Source of the DNA: a virus
Taxonomy: Duplodnaviria > Caudoviricetes
IMG/VR virus record: IMGVR_UViG_3300028797_000006
Span: 32,001 to 96,000 of that record
Length of the DNA: 64,000 nucleotides
Reading direction: 5' to 3' (one strand)
Shown here: in pieces, positions 5,748 through 62,679 of the stretch
How the letters are laid out: every line of letters starts with the position of its first letter
Position numbering within the stretch: position 1 is the stretch's first letter
The notes under the pieces: model-generated
Seen by the model: only the letters and a program-made list of their open reading frames with translations
What the model was told of the DNA's origin: nothing
Database searches by the model: none
Program-made: the position numbers and the translations under genes

Positions 5748-6318
5748 TCTACTATCTCCATTTCTTCTTTATAATAATACTCTGGATGGGCTTGACAGAA
5801 AGCTTTAGCGACAAGTTCAGAGCCTACGATGCAGATTAATTTACTAATATCAGGCCAAACGACATTTTGCCATATGGTATAATAATAAACTACTCTCGCA
5901 AGATCGTCATGGTGATATTTATATAGTGGTCTAGGCATCCATTTTCTCCTCCACTCGAACAATAGCATTGTTTAATAATTTTACAAATTCTTCAAAATTA
6001 GTAGAACCTTCTGCACAAACTTTAACTAATTGAAGCACCTGTCGAACTGTTGCTAAAGTCTCTTTTCTTTCAAGATCGGCTCTTTCCTTATGATATTCTT
6101 TCCATGGTTTAGGCATCTTTCTTATCCTCCAAATTCTCTACGTCAATATTAAAATGTTTCTTGTAGTTTTTAATTTGTCTTTTGGTGAACTTAACACGAG
6201 AAAGCATTATATGCAAATCGCCAATATGAGCAACTGCAGTATATTTCTTAACGAAATCACCTATGCTTTTAACCTTTGATTTTTTAACAGTACTATCTAA
6301 CGTTTTATTTTTAGGCAT
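5726..6318 (-). CDS. Three small coupled hypothetical genes (6109-6318, 5931-6116, 5726-5938)
   Basis: Each starts within an ATGCCTAR overlap with the upstream stop. Confidence 0.6.
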
Positions 6319-9300
6319 CTTTTTTCTCCTCCAATTCAACAAAGTCACCTTCTTCATCCAAAATAATTCTTAAGATAGATTTTCTGCCAGTATTTTTGTA
6401 TACCTTCGGTACAAAGGTCATTCCTCTTTGAATACCTGTGACCAATAAATGGACACCTTTTTCAAAGAAACTATCTTGTTCAATATCCTTTTCTCCTTCC
6501 TCATCAATATCACCTGCAACTGCTATCATTGTCGCGAATAAATCTTTATAAACCTTTAAGTTTACAACACCATCTGGACATTGTAAGGTTACAAGACCTT
6601 TCGTTCTATCTCTATCGATGACTGTGCCCGCGATTGTATACAACTTCATTTTTGGGATTTCTTTTCCCTTAATTAAGAAGTTACCATCTTGCGCACCTTC
6701 AATGATACTATCGACTCTATTGACCGCATATGGCAATTGTTTGATGACCTTTCTCAATGGATGATCTGTATAGTAGAAGTTAATACTATCTAATTCCCAT
6801 TGAAGTTTATCACCTGAACAATACTTTTCCCACTCATCGTGGAACAATCTTTCATTTAATGTCTTTAATAATTCATCATGATTGTCTGTGATATATTTTT
6901 TAATTTTATTCATTTGTCCTTCATAGAAAACATCCCAACGTTTACTACTAAGGACTTTTCTTGGCTCACCTTCAATAACAATTTCTTCTCCGATGATACC
7001 TGAATCTCTAAAGATTTGTCTCCAAGAATCAACTTTATTTGTAGGAATCGCTAATCTGTCCGCGCAATACCAAATCTTGTTAGGATCCCTATTTCTTCTT
7101 AATTCTTTTGTGAGTTTATACAAATCACTTTGATACTCGAACTCATCTGGTAACAAATGTAAATCAATTAACATATTTGCATTTTGCATTGTTAATTTCT
7201 TCTTCATATCACAGATGCTTGCAATATAGTTCTGCAAAATCATTTTTGTTGTCTTTGCTTCTAACTTATTGAACGCACCGCATTTAATTAAATTAATCAC
7301 TTTATCTTTTGTGATAATTCTCTTTTGAACTTTATTTAAGAAATCATCTAATGATGTGAATGGTCTATTAATCATAATTTCATTGATGACTGGTTCTGTG
7401 ATACGTGTGATACCTTTTAATCCATATAAAATACTATTATCTTTTACATCAGGAGTGAATGAAAGTCTTGATGTATTGATATCCGGCATTTCAATCTTAC
7501 AAACCGTTCTAAACTTATCTAATGCGGTCGCAAGTTTCGCATAATCAATTTTATTTTGTGCTTTCTTTTCTTCGCCTGCGTCACCATCGACAATATCGTT
7601 TTCAATTAAGTTATAAAAGTCAGATGCATTAATCGCGCTACTATCAACTGACAAACACGCGCAGTTCCAATAAATAATCGGATACTTATATGCTAAATTC
7701 ATCTCTTGAAGTGCGATAAGCGCATAACCAGTTGTGTGAAGTTCACTAAATGAATAACCTAACTGCGCACTAATTTGCACATACCAAATATAGCTCAATA
7801 AATTATTTGATGCACCTAAAGCTCTGCCCTTTTCAAAGAACATATCTTTAACTGCTTCAATTTCTCTAAATTGTTTCTTTGCGATTGTCTTTCTTAATTT
7901 ATTGGCTTCTTTCATATCGAATCCACTAATCTGCGGATCCATAACCATTTGCATAACCACTTCTTGAGACTCGCCAACACCATTTTTCTTTAACAAATAC
8001 TTCTCTAATAATAACATTTCTGCCTTATTGAGACCATGTGCGCGCATCTCATCATACCACAACTGTGGAACTCTTTTAAAACGAGCATATTTTTCAAGTG
8101 GAAGCTCACCCTCACCCATTAATCTCATTAACGATGAGCTAATCGCTAATTCGTTCAAGCTACGAGGTTGAATACTTTTAATTGCTTGAGAACCAACTAA
8201 TGTATCGAACTGGAACAAACTACTAATTTCTCCACGTCCGACCATATCCCACATTTCTTCAGATGTATAATCTAAGACTTGCGGCGACAAATATTTATTA
8301 TATGTTGCACGAAGTGAACCTTGCCACTCCATTGTGCCATCTTCCAACATATAGTTCATACATTGTCTAATTCTATCTAATGCGGATACAGTTAAAAAGT
8401 CATATTTAACCATACCACATCTTTCTAATGTATGAAGGTCATACGAAGTAACTAACTGTTCGTGTGATGTCTTCATAACACTATTATAATCATTAAAATC
8501 ACCATTGACACAAACGACACCTGATGCGTGAACACCAAGTCTTGTGATAAGACCTTCAATATTTTGTGCTAACTTCCAAAGTTTTGGATGTTCTTTCATT
8601 TGATCGACAAATGCTTTGATTGGCTTCTTATCGTCGCCATTACCATAATAACATTCGCTTAAAGTCCAGTCAAAACCTCTTTCGTTAGGAATCATTGAAG
8701 TTATATATGTGATTGTATCATCATCAATCTTCAATCCACGACCCGCTGTCTTAAGTGCGCTCTTTGTTCCTTCCGTACCAAATGTACAGACATTAATAAC
8801 GTCACCACCGATACTATTAAAATAATCACGAACTGCCTTAAAAACCGCGAGACGTTTATCTGACTCTGTATCAAAATCGATATCAGGAAGGTCAGGACGA
8901 GATGGATGTAAGAAACGCCAAACAAATGGCAAATCCATTTGAACAGGATTCATTTGCGTGATACCCAAAAGATAATTTATTAATAATGCACCCGCAGATC
9001 CACGACTTGGACCGCTAATTGAGTTAGCTTCATTCCAAACTAAATCCATAATTTTGTTCATTGTGATAAAGTAGTCGGCCATTGGCTGTTCAATTTTGTC
9101 ACCGACTTCTTTCAATGTCCAAAATTCTTCCTCTAATCTTTTATAATAAACTTCGTCTGTCCAACCTTGTTGATACTTTTCAACATATCCGTGCGCGACC
9201 AAACGAGCCAAATAATTATCGCTCTTATTATCTGTATGAAGATAATGATAAAAGTTAGGATAAGTTTCTTCATCAACATCAGCAAAGACTTCTAAGTCAT

Positions 9301-10330
9301 CCGCATACTCATCCCAATGTTCATATTCTACGTGCGCAAGTTTTGGCTTTTGCTCAAGCTCATAAAATCTGCACATATCTTTAATTTTATTTGTGTTTGC
9401 TACCATTTCTTCAAATTTATCATCTGAAACATATGGCATTAAATCGCGAACCTCTTGTTGTCTCATAACATATGCATACTTATAAAATTCATCAACTTCT
9501 CTATCTTTTGATGACTTTGAGTTCAAGAATGCTTTATGCGTTTCACGTTCATCAACATTCAAATAGTGCGCGTCAGTAGTGAAGATAAAAGGATATTTAC
9601 CCCAATATCTTTCTATCATAAATTCATTATATGCATTTTGATCGCTTCCAATTTCATTTGGTTGAAGTTCAATATAAAAGTTACCTTTACCAAATAAATT
9701 TTGCATCGCGGTTAAATGATTATCTAACTTCTCTTGGAAGTTAATGCCCATTTCCCATGGCAATCTGTCAGTTGGATTACTTAACTTCTTCCAACACCAT
9801 GCAGCATAACCACCAAGACATGCGGTTGAACATACTAAATGTCCACCTTTTACATATTCAATTAAGTCACTTGGATAAGTTGGGGTTCTTAAAATACCTC
9901 TGAACCATGCCCTTCTCCAAGCACTACTACTTAATTGTTTTAATTGATGAAATCCTTCCGCATCTTTCGCAATAAGAATTAAATGCCAAAAATGCACTGG
10001 ATGATTGCCATCCATCTGCATTTCATCTAATCCTTCTTCACTTAAATAAATCTCGTTACCAAGCATTACTTTGAAGTCCAAAGCAATTGATGCAGTTTCA
10101 TATCCTGGAAATTCAACTGGATACTTTAATTCCCACAATTCTTTTAATTTCTTTTTATATATATCTAATGCTTGAAGAGTTCCGCTGAGACAATCATGTT
10201 CTGTCATTGCTACACCACTTAATCCGATTTCCCAAGCATAATCAACAGTTCGTTCAAAACGATTGATACTATCAATAATTTTAATGTTGGAATATTCAGA
10301 GTGACAATGTAGTGTGCAATAATTTCTCAT
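6311..10330 (-). CDS. dnaE: DNA polymerase III alpha subunit (family C)
   Basis: PHP motif LHCHSEYS, SRGSAG, PDIDFD, GVHASG, KYDFL; 26 Trp, all TGG. Confidence 0.97.
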   Translation of the reverse strand: MRNYCTLHCHSEYSNIKIIDSINRFERTVDYAWEIGLSGVAMTEHDCLSGTLQALDIYKKKLKELWELKYPVEFPGYETASIALDFKVMLGNEIYLSEEGLDEMQMDGNHPVHFWHLILIAKDAEGFHQLKQLSSSAWRRAWFRGILRTPTYPSDLIEYVKGGHLVCSTACLGGYAAWCWKKLSNPTDRLPWEMGINFQEKLDNHLTAMQNLFGKGNFYIELQPNEIGSDQNAYNEFMIERYWGKYPFIFTTDAHYLNVDERETHKAFLNSKSSKDREVDEFYKYAYVMRQQEVRDLMPYVSDDKFEEMVANTNKIKDMCRFYELEQKPKLAHVEYEHWDEYADDLEVFADVDEETYPNFYHYLHTDNKSDNYLARLVAHGYVEKYQQGWTDEVYYKRLEEEFWTLKEVGDKIEQPMADYFITMNKIMDLVWNEANSISGPSRGSAGALLINYLLGITQMNPVQMDLPFVWRFLHPSRPDLPDIDFDTESDKRLAVFKAVRDYFNSIGGDVINVCTFGTEGTKSALKTAGRGLKIDDDTITYITSMIPNERGFDWTLSECYYGNGDDKKPIKAFVDQMKEHPKLWKLAQNIEGLITRLGVHASGVVCVNGDFNDYNSVMKTSHEQLVTSYDLHTLERCGMVKYDFLTVSALDRIRQCMNYMLEDGTMEWQGSLRATYNKYLSPQVLDYTSEEMWDMVGRGEISSLFQFDTLVGSQAIKSIQPRSLNELAISSSLMRLMGEGELPLEKYARFKRVPQLWYDEMRAHGLNKAEMLLLEKYLLKKNGVGESQEVVMQMVMDPQISGFDMKEANKLRKTIAKKQFREIEAVKDMFFEKGRALGASNNLLSYIWYVQISAQLGYSFSELHTTGYALIALQEMNLAYKYPIIYWNCACLSVDSSAINASDFYNLIENDIVDGDAGEEKKAQNKIDYAKLATALDKFRTVCKIEMPDINTSRLSFTPDVKDNSILYGLKGITRITEPVINEIMINRPFTSLDDFLNKVQKRIITKDKVINLIKCGAFNKLEAKTTKMILQNYIASICDMKKKLTMQNANMLIDLHLLPDEFEYQSDLYKLTKELRRNRDPNKIWYCADRLAIPTNKVDSWRQIFRDSGIIGEEIVIEGEPRKVLSSKRWDVFYEGQMNKIKKYITDNHDELLKTLNERLFHDEWEKYCSGDKLQWELDSINFYYTDHPLRKVIKQLPYAVNRVDSIIEGAQDGNFLIKGKEIPKMKLYTIAGTVIDRDRTKGLVTLQCPDGVVNLKVYKDLFATMIAVAGDIDEEGEKDIEQDSFFEKGVHLLVTGIQRGMTFVPKVYKNTGRKSILRIILDEEGDFVELEEKKDA

Positions 10331-57535: not shown

Positions 57536-58261
57536 TTATTTAGGTTCTCCGGTCAAGTTTTTACGCGCGATTTGCTTGTCGATTGCAATTCTATGGATAT
57601 CAGGGGTATTCTTTAATACTCCGCTAGTGACGATTTCTTTTAATGAGACAGGAGTATAGTTGATATGCTCCGCACAAATATTCATATAAAGTGAATTGTA
57701 ATCTAAATTATGTTGATGTCCATGGATATTGAAGAGAAATTCTGGTAACCATCCAATTGGCTCATGTGATAAAACGATTTTATTTGAAATTATAACTGCG
57801 CCTTCATAGACTTCATCAAAGAGATGATTATCTTCATAAACATCATCTTTTGGTTTTACAGTGCCGCACTCAGGACACCAAGCATATTCATAACCGCAGT
57901 TATAAGCAGTTAATAAATCATGATTAACTTCTCCTCCACATTTTGGGCAAGTATCTGAATTATGTTCTATTTCAGTTATCTTTCTTTTGTAATAACTTGC
58001 GCCGCGGTCATGGTTTCCTAAAATTAAAACCTTATAGCCTGCTTTTAACTTTTTGACGCGTTCAATGTCACCAACGTCTCCTAAAATAATAAGAGTATCA
58101 TTCTTGTGAACTACTGCGTTAATGCGGTTAATTTGTTCTTCATCTGTGATACCACGAATGGCATTCATTTCTGCGTCGCCAAAATGCGGATCGCTATAGA
58201 GGTAAATTGAACCTCCGCGATACCAGCGTTGCGCGAAAACATCATACAAATGTTTAATCAT
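57536..58261 (-). CDS. Calcineurin-like metallophosphoesterase with Zn-ribbon insertion
   Basis: SDPHF, LGDVG, LGNHD, SHEP, IHGHQH; CPKC...CPEC insert. Confidence 0.85.
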   Translation of the reverse strand: MIKHLYDVFAQRWYRGGSIYLYSDPHFGDAEMNAIRGITDEEQINRINAVVHKNDTLIILGDVGDIERVKKLKAGYKVLILGNHDRGASYYKRKITEIEHNSDTCPKCGGEVNHDLLTAYNCGYEYAWCPECGTVKPKDDVYEDNHLFDEVYEGAVIISNKIVLSHEPIGWLPEFLFNIHGHQHNLDYNSLYMNICAEHINYTPVSLKEIVTSGVLKNTPDIHRIAIDKQIARKNLTGEPK

Positions 58262-58279
58262 AATAAATCCTTTCTTTAA

Positions 58280-58355
58280 TGGCACCGCTAGTAGGATTTG
58301 CACCCACGTAAGACGACTTAGAAGGTCGTTGCATCATCTTCTATGCTATAGCGGT
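58280..58355 (-). tRNA. tRNA-Arg(UCU)
   Basis: Cloverleaf, loop CTTCTAA, CCA. Confidence 0.9.
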
Positions 58356-58360
58356 AAATT

Positions 58361-58435
58361 TGGCACCCTTGGTAGGAGTTGCACCCGCATCCTGAGTTTC
58401 GTAGACTCACATTCTATCTGTTGAACTACAAGGGT
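58361..58435 (-). tRNA. tRNA-Arg(ACG)
   Basis: Cloverleaf, loop CTACGAA, CCA. Confidence 0.9.
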
Positions 58436-58438
58436 AAA

Positions 58439-58529
58439 TGGCAGAGACGGTGGGATTCGAACCCACGGGCCCGTTACAGGCACACAAGATTTCAAATCTA
58501 GGCGCTTATGACCACTTGCGCACGTCTCT
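58439..58529 (-). tRNA. tRNA-Ser(UGA)
   Basis: Long variable arm, loop TTTGAAA, G73, CCA. Confidence 0.9.
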
Positions 58530-58618
58530 AGATGGTTACTCCCAACATAAACCTGATAAAGGGGTTTCACCTGGCATTCTTTTTTATCTGCTCATGACTA
58601 GTATTGAGCAAGTAGGTT

Positions 58619-58704
58619 TGGCAGAAGCGGAGAGATTCGAACTCTCGGTCCTTGCGGACTCTTGTTTTCTAGACAAGTGGTTTAAACCGCTCACCCACAC
58701 TTCT
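58619..58704 (-). tRNA. tRNA-Ser(AGA)
   Basis: CTTGT-CTAGAAA-ACAAG, variable arm, G73, CCA. Confidence 0.88.
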
Positions 58705-58875
58705 ATATTGTCATGCTAGTATCACTGCTAACGGCTAGACAGAGCCGGGTGGTTCACAAACACCATTCGCCTGCAGATCTTCGCTGTAGACCCAAGCAGT
58801 GCTTTTCGATAGACTGCCTCGCTGTCGTTTCGTTGATTAATCGGGTAGACAGCACCATACCTGTTATAAATTATT

Positions 58876-58970
58876 TGGCAGAGAACGCCGGACTTGAACC
58901 GGCACCCCGGATTACTCCGAGTACTGGCGGTTTAGCAAACCACTGCCTTACCAATTAGGCTTAGTTCTCT
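58876..58970 (-). tRNA. tRNA-Ser(GCU)
   Basis: Loop TTGCTAA, long variable arm, CCA. Confidence 0.9.
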
Positions 58971-58973
58971 ATT

Positions 58974-59049
58974 TGGTGCGCCTAGAGTGATTCGAACACT
59001 CGACTCCATAATTAAAAGTTATGTACTCTACCGGCTGAGTTATAGGCAC
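58974..59049 (-). tRNA. tRNA-Lys(UUU)
   Basis: CATAA-CTTTTAA-TTATG, CCA. Confidence 0.92.
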
Positions 59050-59239
59050 ATATGGTGGGCCTTACACCCACTCAAGAGGTATCGTAACGCGTGTCATACT
59101 TGCGAGTTTAAAGTTTTCTTTCTTATATAATAAGGAAGTAGCGGCCCCTGCCTACTTTACAATGGACTTCTTTGCGAGGCTCCGTTCTCCTTCTCATATT
59201 GGTTATTTTGAGAACTATCCATTAACCTTATAAATTAAT

Positions 59240-59315
59240 TGGTACTCCGCCTGGGACTCGAACCCAGATAACACTAATTAAGAGTTAGTTGCACGACCAG
59301 TTGTGCTAACGGAAT
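59240..59315 (-). tRNA. tRNA-Lys(CUU)
   Basis: ACTAA-CTCTTAA-TTAGT, CCA. Confidence 0.92.
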
Positions 59316-59318
59316 ATT

Positions 59319-59419
59319 TGGTGGGAATTGAGGACTCGAACCTCCACCTCTCACTTCACCGAGAGGCCTTTGTTTCACCCCGTTTTCGCAGGGCGGTGCC
59401 ACCTTGACACTTTCATCCC
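59319..59419 (-). ncRNA. Atypical tRNA-like RNA without a canonical anticodon loop
   Basis: T arm TTCGAGT and CCA end; 6-nt loop CGAAAA; extra 7-bp arm. Confidence 0.6.
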
Positions 59420-59422
59420 ATT

Positions 59423-59507
59423 TGGTACCGGAAGTGGGACTCGAACCCACACGTCTCTCGACAATTGCTTCTAAGGCAATCTTCTGTGCCAACTCGAATA
59501 TTCCGGC
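59423..59507 (-). tRNA. tRNA-Leu(UAG)
   Basis: ATTGC-CTTAGAA-GCAAT, variable arm, A73, CCA. Confidence 0.9.
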
Positions 59508-59510
59508 ATT

Positions 59511-59597
59511 TGGTGTCTAAGGTGAGACTCGAACTCACACGCCCTTTCGGACATTACCCCCTCAAAGTAAGGCGTCTACCAGTTCCGCCACTTAGAC
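59511..59597 (-). tRNA. tRNA-Leu(GAG)
   Basis: TTACT-TTGAGGG-GGTAA, variable arm, CCA. Confidence 0.88.
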
Positions 59598-59603
59598 GTT
59601 TTT

Positions 59604-59736
59604 TGGAATAGGCAGGAGTTGAACCCGCATAAAATACTTCTGTGATGACAAACAATATTCCGATAGATCTGCCCATAAGTCATCTAATTATTGGACTCGT
59701 CCCGTCAGCTCTCCCATTTGAGCTATAACTATTCCA
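59604..59736 (-). ncRNA. tRNA-like RNA with D and T arms but an ~80-nt structured insert replacing the anticodon arm
   Basis: TGGAATAG/CTATTCCA stem, GCTC-AAATGGGA-GAGC, GCGGG-TTCAACT-CCTGC. Confidence 0.6.
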
Positions 59737-59740
59737 TATA

Positions 59741-59816
59741 TGGTGGTCAGACTCAGAGTCGAACTGAGGTGCATGGTTTTTCAGACCATTGTACCAACCG
59801 TGTATACCATCTGACC
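59741..59816 (-). tRNA. tRNA-Phe(GAA)
   Basis: ATGGT-CTGAAAA-ACCAT, CCA. Confidence 0.92.
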
Positions 59817-59818
59817 AG

Positions 59819-60364
59819 TTAGATGGAATCTGCTGTAATTCCACTATTATCGCACATTCTAATAACTTTCATCATCTCGACAGGAGTATAATCCCATCTT
59901 TCTACACATAGACATGCGCCATTACGTGCGATTGTAGGGAACATGCCATGAAAGTCCTTTGCGTGCACATGACCATAGAAGTGATAGTCATATGTATCAT
60001 GTGAGTTTCCTGGACGCGCATCAGGTCTGTGTGAGAAGAAGATTTTATTCCCTGCAATTTCTTTAATGAATGAAGGTAATACTTCTTCAAAACCGCAATC
60101 AAGATAGAATTGTTTGGACTTAGTGTCGTGATTGCCGCGCACTAGAATTTTATGTCCTTTAAGTCGAGGAATGATCCACTTAAGTGAAGACTCTTGACCG
60201 AGCCCGACATCACCAAGATGAATAACAATGTCGTCATCTGTGACTACTGCATTCCATCTCTTAATCATTGCGTCATTCATTTCTTCAATAGAGCGAAATG
60301 GTCTATCTTCATATTGAATGATATTTTTATGATTGAAGTGAGTGTCGCTAATTAAATAAATCAT
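59819..60364 (-). CDS. Calcineurin-like metallophosphoesterase embedded in the tRNA array
   Basis: SDTHF, HLGDV, RGNHD, SHRP, YGHVH. Confidence 0.9.
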   Translation of the reverse strand: MIYLISDTHFNHKNIIQYEDRPFRSIEEMNDAMIKRWNAVVTDDDIVIHLGDVGLGQESSLKWIIPRLKGHKILVRGNHDTKSKQFYLDCGFEEVLPSFIKEIAGNKIFFSHRPDARPGNSHDTYDYHFYGHVHAKDFHGMFPTIARNGACLCVERWDYTPVEMMKVIRMCDNSGITADSI

Positions 60365-60387
60365 AACTTTCCTTTCTTATACAAATA

Positions 60388-60416
60388 ATTATACCAGAAC
60401 CTTTTGAGTTTGTCGA
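60388..60416 (-). promoter_or_regulatory. Possible internal promoter upstream of the phosphoesterase
   Basis: TCGACA-17-TATAAT with extended -10 TG. Confidence 0.55.
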
Positions 60417-60431
60417 TAACTTTTTTCCTTT

Positions 60432-60503
60432 TGGTCGCCGCACGTGGAGTCGAACCACGCTAAGACGCTTATGAAACGTCCGCGATCACCGGATCATACG
60501 GCG
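60432..60503 (-). tRNA. tRNA-Met(CAU) (or Ile2), short D arm
   Basis: GACGT-TTCATAA-GCGTC, CCA. Confidence 0.8.
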
Positions 60504-60505
60504 GT

Positions 60506-60582
60506 TGGCTAGGGCGGGAGGACTCGAACCTCCACAAACACGGGTTCAAGGCCCGTTGACTCTACCATTCGTCCACGCCCCA
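60506..60582 (-). tRNA. tRNA-Gln(UUG)
   Basis: U1-A72 pair, ACGGG-CCTTGAA-CCCGT, CCA. Confidence 0.9.
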
Positions 60583-60586
60583 ATGT

Positions 60587-60681
60587 TGGTACTCCCTGAG
60601 GGACTCGAACCCCCAACCAGCCAATTATCTGTTGCTATACGGGGTATAAACCCGCCGCTCTACCGGTTGAGCTAAGGGAGT
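60587..60681 (-). tRNA. tRNA-Ile(UAU) with long variable region
   Basis: GCGGG-TTTATAC-CCCGT, 24-nt variable region, A73, CCA. Confidence 0.85.
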
Positions 60682-60685
60682 ATAA

Positions 60686-60766
60686 TGGAGACACTGGCAG
60701 GATTTGCACCTGCGATGATTTACTGAGGTTGCAGCTCAGCCCCTTCGACTACTCGGGCACAGTGCC
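60686..60766 (-). tRNA. tRNA-Cys(GCA)
   Basis: CTGAG-CTGCAAC-CTCAG, U73, CCA. Confidence 0.92.
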
Positions 60767-60769
60767 AAT

Positions 60770-60804
60770 AAAAAACCGCTAGACATATTCCTATGCTAGC
60801 GGTT
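60770..60804 (-). terminator. Intrinsic terminator (putative attenuator) immediately 5' of tRNA-Cys
   Basis: AACCGCTAGCATA-GGAA-TATG(T)CTAGCGGTT-TTTT. Confidence 0.85.
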
Positions 60805-60838
60805 GTACCTGATTGTACACTGTTAGTGCCAGTGTTAA

Positions 60839-60928
60839 TTATTTGGTTTTGTTAGCATAGGAAAACTTACACTTCATAAAGCGTGAACTAAGTCTTTGTT
60901 TGGAACATATCTTTAATTCGTTGATCAT
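60839..60928 (-). CDS. 29-aa leader peptide MINELKICSKQRLSSRFMKCKFSYANKTK (putative tRNA-sensing attenuator peptide)
   Basis: AAAGGAG RBS at 60938-60944; codons match the downstream tRNA array; 3' end complementary to the terminator. Confidence 0.8.
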   Translation of the reverse strand: MINELKICSKQRLSSRFMKCKFSYANKTK

Positions 60929-61087
60929 GTTGTGTTTCTCCTTTGCTAAACGATTATAAGGTTCATTTAACCAACAGACAGTAAGCTTGTAGGGTTCTCT
61001 TTCGAGACTTTGCAGTTGGCACCTCGGGCCTCGCACCGTCCACTGACATAATGCCAGATACCTTACCTATCTTAACCTTACATTATT

Positions 61088-61116
61088 ATTATAGGATAAT
61101 TTTTCGATCCTGTCAA
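61088..61116 (-). promoter_or_regulatory. Consensus sigma70 promoter of the leader/tRNA operon
   Basis: TTGACA-17-TATAAT. Confidence 0.9.
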
Positions 61117-61128
61117 TAGAATTTTCAT

Positions 61129-61154
61129 AAAAAAATTACCGAGTTATCGGTAAT
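61129..61154 (-). terminator. Intrinsic terminator ending the large-ncRNA transcript
   Basis: ATTACCGA-TAAC-TCGGTAAT-TTTTTT. Confidence 0.85.
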
Positions 61155-61395
61155 CTCCGGGAATAGATTTTGAGTAAGGCCCCTAAGGTCACTATTCAGT
61201 GTTAACTTTTATGCAGCCGTTAACGAACAACTAGTTATCGTACTAGCGAACTAGAATGGATTTGGGACCATTCATTTACCCAAGAACATATTTACTAGCT
61301 ATCGGTAAAGGCCACTTAGTCAACCCTATTCATTCTTACTCTTATGTAGGAACTCATCCTTTACTATTATGGGGTCTATTGTTAGGCTAGTAACG

Positions 61396-62003
61396 TAACT
61401 GCCCTTTGATAATTATCTAATGCTGACCTTCGTCATACACGGCTTATTAACTGACATTATTCACACACGTTCACTAGAGTCTGAGGCAAAGGGAGCGACC
61501 CAATGACTTCTCTAATGGCATAAAGCGATCAACGGGAACAGTTTACTTTGTTCCAACTTTCACCGAGCTTCAGAGCATATTGTATATTGATCGTAACTTT
61601 CAACGTCGCGGTCAGATTTAACCTTATGTTAAAGCTTCTTCATTTGTCTTTCAGCTACTCGTACAGCCATATTCAGTTATAGGTTATTTCTAACCATCAA
61701 GACACCGGTTTCCTTTGAGTGCCGGGATATTAAGTTTCTCAGGCTTAATTCCTTAGGCGAGATGCATTACTGCAGTTGCTACTTGTCACCGCTGAATTTA
61801 GGCTTTGCTTATGCGTAGTTAACACGATGCACAACCAACTACATCCTTCACTGCTTTCCCATAGTAGGTTTACCTATAAGTTTCCCGATAGGTTTCTTAC
61901 TCACAATACAGTATCCCATATTGCTTTCATTCTGTAGCTGGCTCCAGGCGGTCCGCAAGACCATCTTCACCTGGTTGCAAAGATAATTATCAAAGAACAA
62001 TTA
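61396..62003 (-). ncRNA. Large ornate ncRNA (~610 nt, ROOL/GOLLD-like)
   Basis: No long ORF; 23-bp closing helix with G-U pairs on the minus strand; many internal hairpins; own promoter; adjacent to tRNA array. Confidence 0.7.
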
Positions 62004-62041
62004 CAACATTAAGAAGTTTATTTTTCCTTAATGGTATATGT

Positions 62042-62070
62042 ATTATAGAATTTTTCTGACGAGATGTCAA
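62042..62070 (-). promoter_or_regulatory. Consensus sigma70 promoter of the large ncRNA
   Basis: TTGACA-17-TATAAT. Confidence 0.9.
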
Positions 62071-62103
62071 GAAACTTTCCACTAATTTTTGAAGAAGTTT
62101 TTG

Positions 62104-62318
62104 GTTATAGCCCTTAGGGCAACCTTAAGGCGAACTTCTCGGAAACCTCCAGATCGTTCTAATTGGCAGTAGAACTTATTGGCTAAGACTGTTTGCTACT
62201 GTAGCCTTCCGCTTCACATTGTTTAAGCACTTGTCGCAGCCATACCGCATCTCGGAACTTTTTAGCAAATAGGTATACGCGGCCAATCTCAACCCTATTG
62301 GTAGGTCGGGGTTATAAC
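62104..62318 (-). ncRNA. Putative ~215-nt structured RNA
   Basis: GTTATAACCC/GGGCTATAAC closing stem; nested ATTGGC/GCCAAT and TTTGCTA/TAGCAAA helices. Confidence 0.5.
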
Positions 62319-62343
62319 TCCCACTTGAATAATTAAATATAAA

Positions 62344-62679
62344 TTATTTTCTCTTCTTAGTCAAGGACTTTTTGGCTTTTTCTTCAAGAATTCTCTTGAG
62401 GTTATCCTTGATATCAGCAAGGTAAACATCTTTTGCCGCACAAGTTGGAAGTAATTTATATTCATCCCATAAGTCAGAAACACAAATCTTAACACCACGT
62501 GCGTTGCAAGCAAGAGCAAATGACTCTTTATCGTGATATTTACTTAACAAACCACAAGCACCGACATCAATGCGGCCGACTTTGTCGAGACCGTGCCATA
62601 AATGTCTTTTTGGACCGTGATGTTTGCGCAAGCGTATTTTAACTGGGGCCGCTGGCTTACCCCCTCTTCGAACTGCCAT
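62344..62679 (-). CDS. Basic hypothetical protein (possible RNA binder)
   Basis: AAAGGAG RBS; Arg/Lys-rich termini. Confidence 0.6.
   Translation of the reverse strand: MAVRRGGKPAAPVKIRLRKHHGPKRHLWHGLDKVGRIDVGACGLLSKYHDKESFALACNARGVKICVSDLWDEYKLLPTCAAKDVYLADIKDNLKRILEEKAKKSLTKKRK

Follow-up and report, generated by a model that had tools for sequence, protein, structure and literature searches.

What kind of RNA is made from a phage interval of about 900 nt that is bracketed by a promoter and a terminator, and by what route could so long an untranslated transcript be synthesised and folded? The question was raised by a first-pass annotation of a 64,000-nt stretch of DNA (hereafter the window), belonging to a 118,402-bp complete virus record with direct terminal repeats from cattle rumen. 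It had proposed a ROOL-like non-coding RNA that borrows antitermination and RNase III processing from rRNA and sits beside a tRNA-stress module. Few non-coding RNAs of bacteria and phages are as large as ROOL and GOLLD, and cage structures of both have already been solved. In this work, we present an analysis of the locus in which a ROOL RNA is combined with a boxA leader, a long closing helix and an appended 3' domain. We propose that this RNA is made in the manner of rRNA, through loading of Nus factors, a reading to which we assign a probability of roughly 0.6.

A full-length ROOL RNA and its transcription unit

The transcript holds a genuine full-length ROOL, a member of the known family and not merely an RNA resembling it, since the match to Rfam model RF03087 reached 222.3 bits against a gathering score of 99.1 (E ~1e-50; Table 1). 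The earlier reading is therefore borne out in a stronger form than it was made. The core blocks of the family (GGGUCGCUCCC...CUCAGAC, GUGAAAGUU, UAUAAC and GUAGC..GAAAG) are present in the alignment to the model consensus. This alignment also placed most helices of the multi-junction fold, several pairs being non-canonical, with only three distinct sequences of the subfamily to draw on. Comparison with Rfam, as the first-pass annotation had suggested, gave ROOL and no GOLLD, OLE or group I/II intron match at gathering score; ROOL and tRNA were the only families at this level in the whole window. The other rows at E<=1 in 60700-62400, a boundary-cut tRNA and two entries far below their gathering scores, are not credible. 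Homo-oligomeric cages built of RNA only have been described for the env-120, E. faecalis and L. salivarius ROOLs (PMC12286853, PMC12990946), and by homology with these solved structures the window ROOL should form such a cage as well.

Table 1. Coordinates of the features of the ROOL locus within the window
Feature	Position	Strand	Remarks
Promoter, sigma-70-type	62070-62042	minus	TTGACA-17-TATAAT, 12/12 matches, 17-nt spacer
5' leader hairpin	62038-62002	minus	stem ~62033-62025 with 62015-62007, directly upstream of boxA
Closing helix (P1), 5' strand	62005-61981	minus	leader-trailer-like
boxA-like 13-mer TGTTCTTTGATAA	61999-61987	minus	inside closing-helix 5' strand
ROOL RNA (RF03087)	61998-61404	minus	whole Rfam model, 1-574/574, ~595 nt
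High-depth segment	61968-61153	minus	three rumen metatranscriptomes (X3, X4, X5)
Closing helix (P1), 3' strand	61418-61394	minus	pairs with 62005-61981
Structured 3' domain, lineage-specific	61394-61291	minus	104 nt, branched hairpin, co-transcribed with ROOL
Spacer, 3' domain to terminator	61290-61159	minus	non-conserved, diverges from relatives; within abundant RNA contigs
Intrinsic terminator	61158-61129	minus	12-bp hairpin 61158-61131 into U7 tract
Phosphoesterase-family ORFs (phrog_547), two	57536-58303, 59819-60364	minus	flank and interrupt the tRNA array

The perfect promoter claimed earlier for the minus strand agrees at every one of its 12 positions; it shows no conservation in the two relatives described below (L078 and L084). 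The terminator, placed before at 61154-61129, was absent from the program's terminator scan and was found by folding (61165-61122; dG -12.1 kcal/mol, z -2.9) as a hairpin and U7 tract of nearly the same extent. Likewise, the statement that the interval contains no long ORF holds, as none above 53 aa was found in 61100-62100 under either table 11 or table 4 (TGA = Trp), and no coding frame offers itself in place of the RNA. The primary transcript is non-coding and, with a start predicted near 62035 from the -10 spacing alone, would come to about 880-900 nt from its own strong promoter. Directly after the terminator a second promoter with 12/12 matches (61116-61088, minus strand) opens a separate unit, whose RNA depth is about 85 times below that of ROOL.

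Fourteen tRNA genes lie downstream on the same strand (58280-60766), the array standing about 400 nt from the ROOL unit. Such a neighbourhood is usual for ROOL (PMC5737381, PMC12286853). Together with the two phosphoesterase-family ORFs, the array confirms the suggested tRNA-stress module as a neighbourhood.

Part of the stretch is contained in nine RNA runs, of which four were compared; three are bovine-gut metatranscriptomes from three different studies. In the segment 61153-61968 contig depth reached 130-1100 versus 7-35 in the flanks, i.e. 30-85 times more, and these depths are contig means, which therefore establish strong enrichment and its extent semi-quantitatively and do not give exact ends. 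In X4, the ROOL body and the 3' tail were covered by one 835-nt contig at a depth of 1074, with flanks at 12.7 and 34.5, and X3 and X5 behaved alike. Across the terminator the contig depth dropped from 130-1074 to 7-13, the contigs ending at 61153, 61155 and 61157, that is at the foot of the terminator stem. The window ROOL is thus an abundant RNA in the rumen.

ROOL might be the 5' part of a long stable-RNA operon, in which a boxA-modified polymerase would pass the terminator and continue into the tRNA array. Fusion to tRNAs, or transcription together with them, is frequent among ROOLs (PMC5737381), and only 400 nt separate the unit from the array on this strand. However, RNA depth falls about 85-fold across the terminator, the downstream unit has a perfect promoter of its own (61116-61088) and the boxA core is absent from the minus strand of the tRNA block, which makes such an operon improbable.

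At the other end, contigs stop at 61968-61971 (with adapter at 61971 in X5), where strain variants also break contigs. In X5 the tail (61157-61394) forms its own contig, about 6-8 times shallower than the ROOL body, with the break at the end of the closing helix. Both observations are weak hints of processing at this helix. A gap at 61982-62146 in X4 and a low-depth X3 contig at 61992-62317 were considered as signs of processing and rejected, as depth is a per-contig mean. Loose contig ends at 61981-61988 (X3, X4) run into related-strain sequences, of which one, with a perfect TGTTCTTTGAAAA, represents a fourth variant; each of these rumen samples thus contains expressed ROOLs from several phages of the subfamily.

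A divergent subfamily and its 3' domain

A pattern of the core blocks led to 91 viral stretches, and RF03087 was above cut-off in 48 of the 49 records then scanned. Among 49 phage ROOLs scored with the same model, the window ROOL and two relatives, L078 and L084, gave the lowest values, 204-222 bits versus 288-406, and they therefore form a divergent subfamily. These two, about 77% identical, were the only distinct relatives recovered in scans of IMG/VR, metagenomes and genomes (L096-L098 being a duplicate). The subfamily-specific pattern found no match in bacterial genomes, and the phage collection gave none to the window ROOL or to two other ROOL lineages. Loci L093-L095, caught by an 18-mer pattern, were discarded as unrelated.

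Homology of the three sequences starts exactly at GTTCTTTGA and ends 104 nt beyond the Rfam 3' end, while the flank upstream of GTTCTTTGA is unrelated among them. The additional 104 nt have no Rfam match at E<=1 and fold into a branched hairpin. When covariation was analysed, as had been advised, double compensatory changes occurred in 11 of the 30 pairs (95.6% of cells paired), a result matched by none of 500 shuffles, and slid partners gave 0-1; the closing helix yielded one compensatory change. When 0.94 Mb of ROOL-bearing DNA was searched with a covariance model of the domain, just three copies came up, those of the window, L078 and L084. With three sequences at hand, the case for an appended structured 3' domain in this divergent ROOL subfamily is good but not conclusive.

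We consider it less likely than not that the 104-nt element lies outside ROOL proper, as a small RNA or cis-regulatory element in its own right on the ROOL transcript. It does lie outside both the Rfam model and the closing helix, and the separate X5 tail contig, with its 6-8 times lower depth and its break at the helix end, would suit a distinct RNA. Against this, all three genomes have the element immediately next to the ROOL 3' strand, it is found nowhere else in the 0.94 Mb, and the single X4 contig covers body and tail at a depth of 1074.

Past the ROOL tail, the DNA of both relatives (L078:1240-1400, L084:2640-2880) is unlike that of the window and carries no tRNA unit. An opposite-strand ribosome-binding site and ATG face ROOL, followed by a promoter, after which a gene product with a glycosyltransferase-like IIPQYNE start replaces the tRNA unit.

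The closing helix and the boxA-like motif

The long-range pairing of 62003-61981 with 61418-61396, described earlier as an rRNA-like processing stem, comprises 23 bp (20 Watson-Crick and 3 G-U, with U on the 5' arm), extends to 25 bp and encloses about 600 nt. In shuffled transcripts (n=60) the longest helix was 17 bp, with a mean of 13. Read from the opposite strand, the three G-U pairs would become A-C, so that the RNA must be the minus-strand product, as had been argued; the strand of the RF03087 match agrees. Compared with the relatives, the single compensatory change in the helix is T-A to A-T. To follow the helix and its motif through the family, we took 110 ROOL instances, found in contigs of phages and bacteria, set them in register at the P2 start and grouped them into 32 lineages at ~80% identity. 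Every lineage has a closing helix; it measures 9 bp in one lineage and 12-32 bp in the other 31, and outside the boxA core its sequence varies freely between lineages. The centre of the window helix (61982-61991 and 61408-61417) is a palindrome, GATAATTATC, so that a boxA-like core can be read also on the plus strand at 61404.

Within the 5' arm, the first-pass annotation had pointed to the 10-mer TGTTCTTTGA (61999-61990, minus) as similar to the Firmicutes rrn boxA. This 10-mer alone is unremarkable, because the relaxed 9-mer core occurs about 40 times in the AT-rich 64-kb window. A perfect TGTTCTTTGAAAA 13-mer is found even inside a 1339-aa ORF (7838 minus, within 6311-10330 minus), most likely by chance. 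One could thus regard the likeness in the ROOL locus, too, as a functionless coincidence in AT-rich sequence. Its placement makes this extremely improbable: GTTCTTTGA stands unchanged precisely where homology begins among three 77%-identical relatives (the window, L078 and L084), and the motif is position-specific in 12-17 of the 32 ROOL lineages versus 0-1 of 32 in control windows. More precisely, the core YYTTGAWAA occurs at -55..-5 from the P2 start in 12 lineages and its relaxed form in 17, while six equal control windows had it in none, a seventh in one, and the antisense strand in none. The enrichment against background corresponds to binomial P ~5e-13 to 1e-19, values which measure conservation and not independent origins because ROOL lineages are homologous. 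The core lies in the 5' strand of the closing helix or at its outer base, in several lineages just outside the ungapped helix.

Approximately 11 of the 32 lineages are without boxA, among them the ROOLs of Romboutsia and L. salivarius and five lineages in which ROOL directly adjoins the 3' end of a tRNA. Mimicry of rRNA appears, from these comparisons of sequence, to extend to roughly half of the lineages compared. The ROOLs starting at a tRNA 3' end (L012, L008, L045, L051, L063 and cluster members, e.g. L003, L014, L017, L020, L023, L102 and L135) have a short P1 of about 12-15 bp and no boxA-like core. Presumably it is the enzymes of tRNA processing that set them free, in place of synthesis from a boxA leader of their own.

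In the window, boxA lies about 36 nt past the predicted transcription start and 12 nt past the leader hairpin (dG -8.1 kcal/mol, z -3.1). The latter resembles the small hairpin that also precedes boxA in B. subtilis rrn leaders (PMC13753749). As a trait of the ROOL family a leader hairpin was rejected, the mean z being -0.3, with values below -1.5 in 3 of 20 lineages.

We compared the motif with real rrn boxA sequences, taken from genomes that carry a ROOL or are related to such carriers. The B. subtilis rrn leader consensus, AUGAUCUUUGAAA, binds NusB (PMC13753749), and the window 13-mer matches it at 10 of 13 positions. With the Coprococcus catus rrn leader boxA, the identity extends over 11 nt. 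Among the extracted rrn operons, those of Clostridia have boxAs of the GCACCTTGAAAACTG and GAACTTTGATAATTG types and those of Acidaminococcaceae have GAACCTTGAAAACTG. Coriobacteriales show ACCTTGAGAAC or GAAAGY types, GAGAAC, GAGAGC and GAAAGY being among the forms. Several ROOLs follow these variants. Phascolarctobacterium-labelled ROOLs have a 12-mer, CCTTGAAAACTG, in common with the Acidaminococcaceae rrn leader; in Clostridiales CCNA10 the rrn leader and spacer boxAs are ACCTTG-type and so is the motif of its own ROOL. The Coriobacteriia ROOLs (L100, L140, L116/L151) carry GAGA and GAAAG variants and are the sole named-taxon loci with G-containing forms, which occur also in three loci without taxon (viral contig L076, L181 and L184). 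A test of host-specific co-variation gave Fisher P = 0.08 for named-taxon loci only, with few lineages and with two loci that group with Coriobacteriia ROOLs having no displayed taxon, so that co-variation of the ROOL motif with the rrn boxA of the host group is suggestive only.

The layout of the CCNA10 rrn operons (L185, L187, L188) is similar as well. A hairpin is followed by the 16S leader boxA, for which a complementary stretch of about 25 nt lies in the spacer, about 60 nt past the 16S 3' end. BoxA as the 5' strand of a leader-trailer helix is therefore a native rRNA arrangement. Thus both likenesses proposed in the first-pass annotation are supported by comparison: that of the motif to boxA by positional enrichment in ROOL lineages and resemblance to extracted rrn boxAs, and that of the stem to rRNA by the leader-trailer helix of CCNA10.

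The same arrangement invites another explanation, that the boxA look-alike is a conserved structural or nuclease element, read by RNase III, Mini-III or another maturation enzyme, with no role for Nus factors. ROOL would then resemble rrn since in each the sequence forms the foot of a processing stalk that one set of RNases recognises. In the finished RNA the motif is paired, with a complement that is likewise conserved; rrn boxA also lies within the 16S leader-trailer helix in CCNA10, and in L. salivarius a longer precursor gives rise to the ROOL (PMC5643018). Because the motif is within the helix, part of its conservation could indeed be structural or serve RNases. As the whole explanation we find it unlikely, though, as the 9-mer is held while other helix positions vary freely between lineages, the motif tracks phylum-specific rrn boxA variants, in several lineages it stands just outside the ungapped helix, and sequences of this type are bound by B. 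subtilis NusB (PMC13753749). For the family as a whole, we would give even odds to a host-adapted rrn boxA in a leader-trailer-type helix being ancestral and widespread in ROOLs, which would be synthesised, folded and perhaps processed by the rRNA-dedicated Nus machinery.

Proposed biogenesis and comparison with known systems

For the window locus, synthesis through Nus loading would proceed as follows. The transcript would present, in order, the leader hairpin, a host-type boxA, the ~595-nt ROOL body, the 104-nt 3' domain, the spacer and the terminator. By analogy with rrn antitermination complexes, nascent boxA would load NusB-S10 (NusE) onto RNA polymerase, and the loaded factors could act by antitermination or as chaperones. 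They may shield the long untranslated ROOL transcript from premature, Rho-type termination, and the complex may hold the 5' strand close to the enzyme while the roughly 590 nt that precede its 3' partner are transcribed. The leader-trailer-like helix could then form and the ornate ROOL fold close, after which the helix may serve as a substrate for double-strand-specific RNases. In rRNA, the leader-trailer helix is essential for 30S formation, with a more modest contribution of boxA (PMC10250234).

Related observations come from L. salivarius, where ROOL has the abundance and stability of 16S rRNA and its mature 5' end lies 225-450 nt downstream of the promoter, a distance that implies processing (PMC5643018). 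In pMP118 of this species (L207:2264-2806) the Rfam ROOL span is 543 nt, without a clear boxA, and the published mature RNA has 520 nt, so that the mature form of this divergent ROOL may lack about 23 nt of what the model includes at the ends.

If the proposed route is true, it would explain an rRNA-like abundance and offer a reason for ROOL reaching the level of 16S rRNA. Phage ROOL transcription might also compete with host rRNA synthesis for NusB-S10. A conserved boxA in a leader-trailer helix would provide a concrete path of ROOL biogenesis, in which Nus loading, protection of the transcript and aided closure over 600 nt are combined. The locus itself adds a divergent ROOL subfamily, extended by a structured 3' domain, and shows directly that such a ROOL is highly expressed in the rumen.

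In the openly accessible literature we found no paper that treats boxA together with ROOL, and neither ROOL nor GOLLD is linked there with antitermination, NusB or RNase III; closed-access papers, such as the ROOL nanocage cryo-EM study of Ling et al. (Nature 2025, as cited in PMC12515178), might differ. The ROOL cryo-EM paper PMC12286853 does not mention boxA, antitermination, NusB or RNase III. The boxA survey of Baniulyte et al. (2017) explicitly left out non-coding RNAs (PMC5725501), and a boxA in ROOL would extend the non-ribosomal targets to this class.

Of the known systems, non-rRNA boxA targets (suhB, rpsJ and others; PMC5725501) and lambda nut have the same host boxA near a non-ribosomal 5' end, phages included, but they serve mRNA regulation or depend on the phage N protein with boxB. 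GOLLD is likewise a large ornate phage RNA that is found near tRNA genes and forms cages (PMC12286853); unlike it, the window RNA matches ROOL, which together with tRNA is all that reaches gathering score. From rrn operons the locus differs in that the enclosed RNA is non-ribosomal, no boxC was identified and many ROOLs are without boxA, whereas the order of promoter, small hairpin, boxA and long-range helix round a large stable RNA is the same as in rrn leaders (PMC10250234, PMC13753749), and boxA forms the 5' strand of the helix in both the CCNA10 rrn and the window ROOL. Compared with its own family, the window RNA stands apart as a divergent, lowest-scoring subfamily with an extra 104-nt 3' domain outside the model, while it retains the core motifs, the long closing P1, the phage location beside a tRNA island, the non-coding character and the high abundance of ROOLs.
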